Of a DNA stretch of 64,000 nucleotides, positions 29,077-32,114 are shown piece after piece (positions within the stretch are counted from its first letter, which is position 1; each line of letters starts with the position of its first letter). The stretch comes from Macrostomum lignano. Lineage: Eukaryota. The notes under the pieces were generated by a model. That model saw nothing but the letters and a program-made list of their open reading frames with translations, was not told the origin of the DNA and made no database searches. The DNA lies in NCBI GenBank assembly GCA_002269645.1, contig NIVC01000087.1:248001-312000 (forward strand). The letters run 5' to 3'. Position numbers and translations under genes: made by a program.

Positions 29077-29990
29077 GAGTAGGCTGAAATTGCTTTGCTG
29101 ATGATGCCGTGCTTTAGCATTTTATCGATAATTTCGTCGAAGTGTTGTTGCAGATGCTTGGCTATCGGGTACGGCTTGCACTGAATTGGTTCCGTGTGTG
29201 GCAGAAGCTTGATTTCTTGTTTAATGTCTTTAGCGCGTCCAATGTCGTAATCATGAAGGCAGAAGGCTTCGTTGTACTTCCACAACAGTTGTCGAACTTT
29301 CTTATTTTGCTGTTCCGTAATCGGGCTGTCGTCTAAATTGATCTTCTTTTGGAATTCTTCTTCCGTTAGTCGTGGAGTCGCGTGCTCAATCAGCATAACC
29401 GATGCTTGGGTGTTGAGATGACCGATGCACATTCCTTGTCGTAGATGAACCACTTCTGCGTTCGGGTTGAAGATTTGTACTGGTAGCTGTTTATATTTTG
29501 CAACCAGTACTAGTGCCGTAGGCATCATAATTTGGTGTTTAGCCGTGACTCTTCTGTTTGGTTCAAATATCATTGCTTCCTCCGTTACGTTAGTTGCCTT
29601 TGCCCTAATCCAGCAGGCGCTTTCCGGTTGGATGATGACATCTTGTTGCAATGTTACTTTTGGTAGTACTCCGATCTGGTTGATCAATGGTTGTTCCACC
29701 GAGTCAATCTTAAACGTTTGCCTATTAAAGTCGAAGGTCAATGGTAGTCGAAGCTGCTTGAACGTGTCGATGCCAACAATAACGTCCTGGTTTTGGAGTC
29801 TGTCGATGACGTATGTCGGAACCGTCAAATGTTTGTTAGCAATTCGTAAGTCGATGTCGGCTTTTCCCAGAATGTTTAGTGAATGTCCTCCTGCTCCTGC
29901 AACTGCGATTGTTGCTGGCCGTAGAGCGAGTCGTAGCTTGTTGCACAGTTGTTTTGATAACTGTGATGGAGCTGCCGGAGTCGAGTAGCG
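29077..29990 (-). pseudogene. Protease C-part, dUTPase-like linker and RT start of element 3
   Basis: Close homologue of the element 1 pol (DVIVGIDTFKQL, VTLQQDVIIQPES, IKLLPHTEPIQCKPYPI). Frameshifted just after LDSGS. Confidence 0.9.
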
Positions 29991-32114
29991 CTCGACATGG
30001 TAGATTGTTGATTACCACTTGAGCCATGGCTTTGCCAATCTCAGCGTGTAGCGTACAAACGTAGTTCTCTGGCCATTTTTGTTCTTGATGTTCCGATTGA
30101 TAGTTAGGTGGTTGCAATTCCGGTGCCGTTGGTGTTGTCGGAATTAAAGGGTACAATCGCGTTGATATTGTCGGTTGTCTTTGAGCCTCGCGATGTGCAG
30201 TTTCTGTTAGTTCCAAACTGTTGTCGTTTTCCGTTGTCGTTCTTTGCATTATGGCGTTCACCGTCTTCTTAGCTCTTGGACAAGTGTGACTGAAGCACCG
30301 TACGATTGACGAAATGATGAAAATTGCCGTGACAATCCACACAATGCAAGCACCGTAGAAGATGAATCCTTGATAGAGACTGCCTCTTCCATTGAGCAGC
30401 TCCCAGAAGCTGTTTGTCCAAAATGATTTGATGGCGCTGTCCATTGAAACAAGGACTGGGAATCTGCCTGTTCCAGTTCCTGTGTCCTTTCGTGTGAACA
30501 GTTGGTAAATCATCTTGCGCTGAGTGATGAACGCTTGCAAGAAGTCGTTGATGGTCCATCCTGATGTTATCTCGTCAAGTTGGATATCGGCGAATGGCGT
30601 ATACTTCGTTCTGTTGAATCGGATTTTCAAATCCTCCATGTCGTAGTTTTCGTCGACGATTACTTCCGGTTCTGTGATGTTTGCTATCGTTCCAGTTGTT
30701 TTGATGGCGTGTAGTGCATTGTCCAGTTGATAGTAGTTAGCTGCCGTGGTGCAAGGTCTCGGTATTGCGGTGCCAACGATGATGTTGTGTACCGTGTCCA
30801 AGAATCCTTGAATTCGTTTTCCTTCGTAGAACGCTTCAATCCTTGGCTTATCGTAGCAGGTTGTTGACGTGTTTGACGGCAAGATGTTGAAGTGCTGTAT
30901 CGGCGTGCACTTGTATATCAACAGATGCTCGTATATTGGAACTGCCAAAACGTTCGTCATTCCGGTAATTTTACGAAAAGTCATCGTAGAGTTGACATAG
31001 TAGTTTTGTCTGGCATAATTTAAGTTGATTGCGTGCATTTTGCAAGTTAGCTCAACCATTGTTCGATGCAAGTGGTTTAACTGGTTATGTAGATTGTGAT
31101 CCAAAGCCGTTATCTTTGCTGACAGTAGTCGGTTTGACACCAGTTTGGGACCTTCGATGTCACGTCGTCGTCTGTTCTGTTGTTCCTGCTGTTGATACGT
31201 TCCGTTGATGATCGCCAGAAAGGTTTGTTTGTCGTCATCTTTTACGTAGACTGGTATCTCTTGTTCCGAGATGAATAGTGTCTTGTCTGTATCCTTGCAT
31301 TTCAGTTTTTGCTCGACTGGTTTCTTTTGCTCGACTGCTCGACTGAAACGTCAGTGCCAAGTCTCCTGACTTTGCCAAAAACGTATTTGACAGTAGTCCT
31401 CCTTCAACTGTGTGATACTTTGAAGCTTGCAGTCAATTTCCGGCTCAACTTCCCACGCGAAGAAGTATTGTCGTGACTTAGATGGTTCTTCATATCATGA
31501 GTCGCCTCTGCGTATAATTTGCCATCGATAGTCTTGAAGATATGTTGTACTCAACGGTAAGCTGTATAGTTCCTCATTTCGCAGTATCGGCGTTGGACAC
31601 CATCCTTTGCTGTATCGGCAGTCGCTTAATTGCAGTTGTAGCGATTTCATTTTTTCAAAAGGATTGTGGTAGAATGGAATATTCCTGATTAGGTAACTGT
31701 TTCGTGTCATGTAGTTAGTCCCTGCTTCCGAAAAGTGTACATATCGTCCGTTTGCTGAGTTCTTCGTTCGGTAAAGTTGTGCCTCCCCCACTTTCTCATC
31801 CGGTTCTAGTTGACCATCCATGAGAACAGTGTTTGGTTCCATTGTAGACATTCAGCGTGCGACACATGTAGTTCGTGTTGCCAAAATCGAATTCTGTTCC
31901 ACTGTCCTCGCCAAACGATTTCCACTAGGTGCTTGTCTCTAAAGCACACTATTCCGAGTTGTCGATGCTTCTTGATGTTAGCTTTGTAGAGATCAATTGC
32001 GATCTTCTTTGGCTTCGTCTGGTTTGTCTTGAAGTAGCTGCATTTGATGTCGGTTGGTATCTTTTAGATCATCGGTTGGATATGCGCATCCGTTGGACAT
32101 ATCATTGGTTTCTC
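29990..32114 (-). pseudogene. env of element 3, in frame with the protease motif ALLDSGS; N-terminal half frameshifted; signal peptide removed by the Polinton
   Basis: PMICP...IPTDIKC...VCFRDK...ECLQW; DCRYSKGWCPTP; furin RRRR at 31162-31173; TM FIFYGACIVWIVTAIFIISSIV. ORF 29836-31140 crosses the env-PR boundary without a stop. Confidence 0.85.

Follow-up and report, generated by a model that had tools for sequence, protein, structure and literature searches.

A degraded segment of a multi-copy Ty3/gypsy element in Macrostomum lignano, the open copies of which encode a gB-like env with a predicted furin site

The env segment and its surroundings

The DNA analysed here (the window) is a stretch of 64,000 nucleotides from a Macrostomum lignano contig (NIVC01000087.1, positions 248,001 to 312,000), and its features are collected in Table 1. 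Six-frame translation combined with a motif scan located, on the minus strand from 32114 to 29990, all the motifs by which an initial annotation had recognized an env gene; the Cys-patterned N-half, DCRYSKGWC, the helix, CKMH and HLLIYKC are present as described, while NPT..FRKI takes the form NSTMTFRKI in this copy and NPT itself is found in the copy at 18198. Polybasic sites had been noted in three env copies, and all three exist, but the one at 4732 (RQKR(R), plus strand) stands in front of the Thr-rich insert of a sister family. The third env is 91-94% identical at the amino acid level to that of this sister family (L091), which is only 25% identical to the window env, and the RNKR site preceding the helix in L091 lies past the LTR cut in the third copy. 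The window env has no free open reading frame of its own, and continues into the frame of protease and reverse transcriptase (RT).

Compared with a naturally open copy, to which it is 95.7% identical in DNA over 2108 aligned bases, the window env carries premature stops near 32066 and 31497 and frameshifts near 31821, 31421 and 31345, with more near 30120, where length differences (30117-30121) shift the frame within the tail and linker. Beside the 848-bp solo LTR the greater part of RT and RNase H is absent, and a Polinton stands where the primer-binding site (PBS), gag and the env signal of the element would be. Because of the stops, the frameshifts, the loss of the 5' end to the Polinton and the LTR inside RT, the window copy is dead and cannot make an env protein. 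The flanks of the Polinton are unmatched, forming no target duplication, and the LTR beyond it is only 76% like the 3' LTR of the window element, which suggests either that two Polinton insertions have recombined or that an assembly join lies at 32115-48805.

Between 4989 and 29076, at least seven LTRs and several incomplete family copies are densely nested, all in minus orientation; tandem arrays with a shared LTR also occur in G000:C669 and C2447. Internally deleted copies, in which gag and the env signal are joined directly to the end of integrase, are found at 21400-23290 (-) and at a further locus (L047). The window also contains a non-LTR retrotransposon remnant with endonuclease and RT (330-3168, -) and two tandem repeat arrays (59026-59692 and 60406-63551). 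The second array is a degenerate CCTCT-type satellite, for which reason arthropod telomere repeats were rejected at 60400-63550.

Table 1. Positions of the features discussed in the text, in window coordinates
Feature	Position	Strand	Basis
Env remnant: gB-like ectodomain and transmembrane segment, signal segment missing	30300..32114	-	translation, alignment to open copy
VCFRDK motif	31949	-	motif scan
ECLQW motif	31853	-	motif scan
DCRYSKGWC motif	31623	-	motif scan
RRRR furin-type site, domain II-III linker	31162..31173	-	motif scan, model, alignment to EBV gB
Predicted long central helix (domain III)	30996..31134, approximate	-	model residues 324-370
Helix motif LDHNLHNQLNHLHR	31104	-	motif scan
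CKMH motif	31044	-	motif scan
NSTMTFRKI	30993	-	motif scan
HLLIYKCTP motif	30927	-	motif scan
Hydrophobic transmembrane segment	30300..30369	-	translation, hydropathy, motif scan
Transmembrane start GFIFYGAC	30369	-	motif scan
Cytoplasmic tail and linker to protease	29992..30299	-	alignment to open copy
Protease motif ALLDSGS	29991	-	motif scan
Aspartic protease and 5' part of RT	29077..29991	-	translation, Pfam
Solo LTR of same family, 848 bp, inserted in RT	28229..29076	-	4-bp target duplication
Integrase, H2C2 (partial) and rve	26992..28188	-	Pfam
Accessory ORF 1, 222 aa, two RING-like Cys/His modules, MGNAQS start	26175..26843	-	
Accessory ORF 2, about 212 aa, RING-like paralogue	25482..26129	-	
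Element's 3' LTR, start portion	24868..25271	-	98% to open copies
5' LTR of another family member, directly after the element's 3' LTR	24016-24866		
Polinton/Maverick	32115..48805		long terminal inverted repeats, integrase, pPolB, DJR capsid
Second env copy, C-half only, RQRR at 18367-18378	17407..18549	-	in frame with PR-RT-RNase H
Third env, sister family with Thr-rich insert, broken, LTR cut at 4989	3430..4988	+	

The element family and its published relatives

Searches of the same genome recovered further copies both as DNA (40 of 93 candidates scored, all 90-100% identical) and as protein (147 matches from 149 candidates, with identity down to 21%). Around 16 copies the layout is LTR, PBS, gag, env, protease, RT, RNase H, integrase, RING-like ORFs and LTR. 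In the open copies env lies between gag and pol in a single frame of about 2,480 codons, a layout absent from the earlier reading, and ten close copies among the 147 matches listed sit in open frames of 2,370-2,538 codons. Pfam places the domains in the order env-PR-RT-RH-IN within one ORF, env being upstream of the protease. The closest named protein is a Macrostomum lignano polyprotein (97% identity). A deletion derivative of a 65% family recurs at L097 (G000:C301) and in at least five other places; its 1,031-codon frame holds gag and the env N-half through the furin site, and is followed by RING ORFs.

The Gypsy-type host element that had been proposed agrees with both the Pfam evidence (PR-RT-RNase H-integrase order with gypsy-type profiles) and the LTR features, namely TG...CA LTRs, a PBS, a polypurine tract and a short target duplication. 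In 13 of 15 measured LTR pairs identity reaches 99.7% or more, and an exact 4-bp target duplication flanks 10 of 16 elements, the other six comprising two tandem arrays, one incomplete element, one at a contig end and two with imperfect duplications. The family is a young Ty3/gypsy LTR element. Two other assignments were rejected: (i) BEL/Pao, as Pfam found neither Pao peptidase A17 nor DUF5641 in the 2,147-aa ORF (its gag gave a weak DUF1759 match, E 0.004), both of which it detected in the BEL homologue P0044; and (ii) the Troyka gypsy group, which has a 3-bp target-site duplication where the one here is 4 bp.

After the integrase, two tandem sense ORFs (25482-26843, -) each contain two RING-like modules, and double-RING ORFs recur at 20075-21240, 12255-13542 and 7808-9181. 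No description of RING ORFs in such elements was found in the open-access literature searched, including the relevant passages of PMC13524379 and PMC5408684. The ORFs are full, truncated or multiple depending on the subfamily, and an own-genome search for them scored 150 matches from 237 candidates. ORF 1 begins with MGNA(L/Q)S(K/R) in the close subfamilies and not in the 65% family L087, a start which we take to resemble the myristoylation consensus. For ORF 1 the database homologue search was empty, the Atlas leads were below 0.9, the single-sequence fold had a pLDDT of 37 and Pfam gave Sina_RING far under its cut-off.

HSV/gB-type errantiviruses of GAG-ENV-POL order were reportedly treated by Sacco et al. 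in 2022, and chuvirus-G-like env genes are said to have been found on mosquito BEL/Pao elements by Dezordi et al. in 2020. The latter env type has the same class III fold, and one BEL/Pao homologue (P0044) is among our matches, but the carrier here is Ty3/gypsy and env lies upstream of pol. Env of gB type has been described across invertebrate Ty3/gypsy elements by Chary and Hayashi (eLife 2026; PMC13524379), who found the GAG-ENV-POL order in flatworms as well as in nematodes and bryozoans, and who describe a furin site whose conservation is incomplete. Both the gB-type Ty3/gypsy env and the flatworm gag-env-pol order are, then, already in print. The family here resembles these HSV/gB-type errantiviruses of Nematoda, Bryozoa and Platyhelminthes in its gene order, with env between gag and pol, in its gB-type five-domain env, in its gypsy pol and in its multiple intact copies; it differs in that the furin-type site is strictly kept in own-genome envs, in the 210-270-aa Thr-rich linker inserts of some sister families and in the 3' double-RING ORFs (compared with the account in PMC13524379). 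The main-text passages of that paper make no mention of Macrostomum, RING or polyprotein, and the term passages of PMC4604429 and PMC12801592 yielded nothing on an env of this kind.

The supplementary table of PMC13524379 lists Platyhelminthes_Rhabditophora_Mlig_errantivirus_2 as ENV_HSV with 16 copies, and our family is apparently this entry. One subfamily here agrees with the entry in ENV_HSV type, in primer site (reverse complement GCGAGATCACCA), in an LTR of 864 bp and in the LTR-to-LTR offset, 9,727 against 9,728 in the L053/L054 element here; the match is by PBS, LTR length and LTR spacing, the sequence of the entry being absent from the supplementary alignment. The window copy differs from the entry in being dead, in its longer LTR type and in having both RING ORFs, and its env is 90.7% identical in DNA to the 864-bp-LTR subfamily and about 96% to others.

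Fold and origin of env

The fold was studied on naturally open copies. A single env sequence searched against the PDB gave six chance matches and no fusogen. A profile of 11 natural own-genome envs, 23-99% identical, had herpes gB for 25 of its 27 PDB matches (best EBV gB, E 4.8e-15), and with a 43-sequence profile all 52 matches were gB (best 3.9e-19), the alignment starting at the first Cys. Word-index protein searches for homologues gave 1 and 2, and a full HMMER search 50. Pfam PF24664 scored 23.2 bits on the open-copy env, under its 27-bit cut-off; among 30 homologues scanned, eight exceeded that cut-off and two had Glycoprotein_B below cut-off in the region matching the query. Atlas features also point to a class III, gB-like fold.

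An AlphaFold model of a naturally open env, seeded with an alignment of homologues, reached pLDDT 78 and pTM 0.55 and shows long beta hairpins, a disordered loop (307-322), a 47-residue helix (324-370) and a beta crown. Foldseek against the PDB placed gB first, and the 32 matches listed were all gB (best E 9.6e-22, TM 0.45), with modest global TM-scores of 0.39-0.45 and rmsd of 12-17 A. VIA gave HSV-1 gB at Z 11.6 over 420 residues, PRV gB domain IV at Z 10.6 (rmsd 3.5) and PH folds across model residues 34-302 with about 80 aligned residues; gB was followed by rhabdovirus G (Chandipura G, Z 6.2), thogotovirus GP (about 5) and GP64 (4.4). As in gB, the model and its VIA matches outline a PH-like domain II broken by a beta-hairpin fusion domain I, and a long central helix (domain III, 324-370) followed by a beta-rich domain IV. 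In BFVD, nyavirus-like glycoproteins, herpes gB, entomopoxvirus proteins and chu-like glycoproteins were interleaved, with E down to 1e-24, the chu-like rows standing at ranks 19-20, below the nyavirus and herpes rows. Neither baculovirus F nor phlebovirus Gc occurred among the Foldseek PDB, BFVD and VIA matches listed.

Each env ectodomain has 12-14 Cys, which align in the profile with those of gB, and 4-8 N-X-S/T sites. In the open copies, hydropathy places a hydrophobic segment on either side of the ectodomain (signal and C-terminal TM). A Trp-rich turn between strands 51-70 and 73-83, together with a second aromatic loop, provides candidate fusion loops in this family, which are far less aromatic in the sister families L089-L095. 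The env has the domain order of herpesvirus gB (EBV 3fvc/7fbi, KSHV 9cu4, HSV-1 2gum, HCMV 5cxf), with Cys at corresponding positions, and likewise has its central helix, NPT motif and domain IV; in both, a polybasic run stands in the same linker. It differs from gB in sequence (10-14% identity), in its shorter domains I and II, in being part of a retroelement polyprotein and in that no gH/gL partner, which herpesvirus gB needs, is encoded. The class III fold is likewise shared with nyami-, chu- and rhabdo-like virus glycoproteins (Pfam PF24664). Profile, Foldseek and VIA comparisons with viral fusogens thus all return class III proteins with gB first, in line with what had been proposed from motifs, and a class III, gB-like fold is supported by the model.

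The own-genome env families, with identity down to 23%, form one clade. In a quick env tree (51 of 61 rows, ten having been dropped for short coverage; midpoint-rooted, without viral sequences and with long branches), the own-genome envs, with P0004, are one clade against 38 other homologues (SH-aLRT 100). In an RT tree restricted to sequences of this analysis, also midpoint-rooted and without viral sequences, the own-genome RTs form a weakly supported group (84/89) that leaves out four other gag-env-pol RTs. Together, the env clade and the weak RT grouping indicate an env that has long been present in this lineage. Since viral families are interleaved in BFVD, no env donor can be named.

As to its origin, and compatibly with a role as a class III fusion protein, the flatworm lineage may have captured its gB-like env independently, for example from a negative-strand RNA virus, as opposed to having it from an ancient env-bearing ancestor; we regard such an old capture, or a swap, as possible but less likely than not. 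The separate env clade, the failure of the RTs to group with the four others and the ranking of negative-strand virus glycoproteins as high as gB in BFVD would fit such a capture, but the rooting of both trees, their lack of viral sequences and the quick, long-branched env tree weaken the first two. RT clade S has 12 members, of which the matching entry is the sole ENV_HSV and 11 are ENV_F (PMC13524379, supplement), yet eight integrase clades are represented in it, and it may hold together only loosely. The same gag-env-pol layout and a homologous env also occur in unrelated polyproteins, and ancient acquisition with rare exchange has been argued (PMC13524379). Of the independent capture by a Gypsy-type element initially put forward, the Gypsy-type carrier holds; the capture is favoured by the clade S singleton and disfavoured by an old env that forms one clade and belongs to a published, widespread group.

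The furin-type site and the proposed working of an open copy

A conserved furin-type site had been claimed, and as a sequence motif it is borne out. All 11 own-genome envs have R-X-K/R-R in the domain II-III linker, and the roughly 520 ectodomain residues outside it lack the motif; composition shuffles yield the linker motif in 1-9%. The motif is present in 32 of 40 database homologues spanning the linker (nine more, which do not span it, were excluded from the count) and, because the remaining eight lack it, is not universal. RRRR corresponds to model residues 311-314, within the low-confidence loop, and the 11-env profile pairs the polybasic site with the run of Arg in EBV gB. Judged from the motif, furin cleavage of env is likely. 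In the sister families L089, L090 and L091 the linker carries a Thr/Pro-rich insert of 210-270 aa. R-X-X-R sites lie on both sides of the insert, with two full R-X-K-R sites in L091, so that it could be cleaved out.

Env dN/dS was 0.042-0.063 in four of six pairs, the other two being saturated and left out. The downstream pol in the same frame also forces env to stay open, but this does not explain the low dN/dS, which indicates strong purifying selection on the ectodomain.

Both observations bear on a reading in which the class III fold is kept only as a membrane anchor or scaffold for intracellular particle assembly, with no movement between cells. With a single ORF, gag, env and pol have to be made in equal amounts, the internally deleted L047 copy keeps a 1,020-codon open gag-to-integrase frame nearly without env, and the fusion-loop residues differ between families, all of which could be accommodated by an anchor; selection acting on the whole ectodomain and retention of the furin-type site at 23% identity would not be expected of a mere anchor, and we consider this reading very unlikely. 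A baculovirus F-like (class I) fusogen, a phlebovirus Gc-like (class II) one, or a protein that is no fusogen, is extremely improbable. A furin site ahead of a long helix would suit class I fusogens as well, and two low Atlas rows (0.89) are arenavirus GP and ISAV HE, but class III proteins come consistently first in profile and structure searches and the residues after the site are polar, with no hydrophobic fusion peptide.

The region is very probably what is left of env in one broken member of a multi-copy Ty3/gypsy family. Open copies of this family encode gag, a gB-like env and pol as a single frame, the env being a likely furin-cut class III fusion protein. From the two hydrophobic segments around the ectodomain and general membrane-protein biology, we infer that an open copy would work as follows: (i) gag would be made in the cytosol, (ii) the hydrophobic segment after gag would thread the env ectodomain into the ER, signal peptidase probably cutting there, (iii) the second hydrophobic segment would anchor env and return protease-RT-RNase H-integrase to the cytosol, (iv) the element protease would free the enzymes there, (v) furin would cut the linker between domains II and III, and (vi) env trimers on a budded particle or on the cell surface would fuse membranes, carrying the element between cells.

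A further-reaching version, which we consider unlikely, would make the family a still-active, cell-to-cell infectious retrovirus analogue with a separately acquired, stand-alone, furin-primed gB-like fusogen made equimolar with gag and pol, and helped by its own 3' double-RING proteins, of which one begins with a myristoylation-like motif and which would serve either as a matrix in budding or, as ubiquitin ligases, against silencing. Least well explained in the family are the RING cassette and the Thr-rich inserts, which are putatively removable by cleavage.

To an entry of the Mlig_errantivirus_2 type, the present analysis adds a structural match, evidence of strong purifying selection and a furin-type site that keeps the position known from gB in families only 23% identical. 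If the env is active, a genetically tractable flatworm would allow tests of whether non-insect env-bearing retrotransposons pass between cells and of how a gB-like protein fuses without gH/gL.
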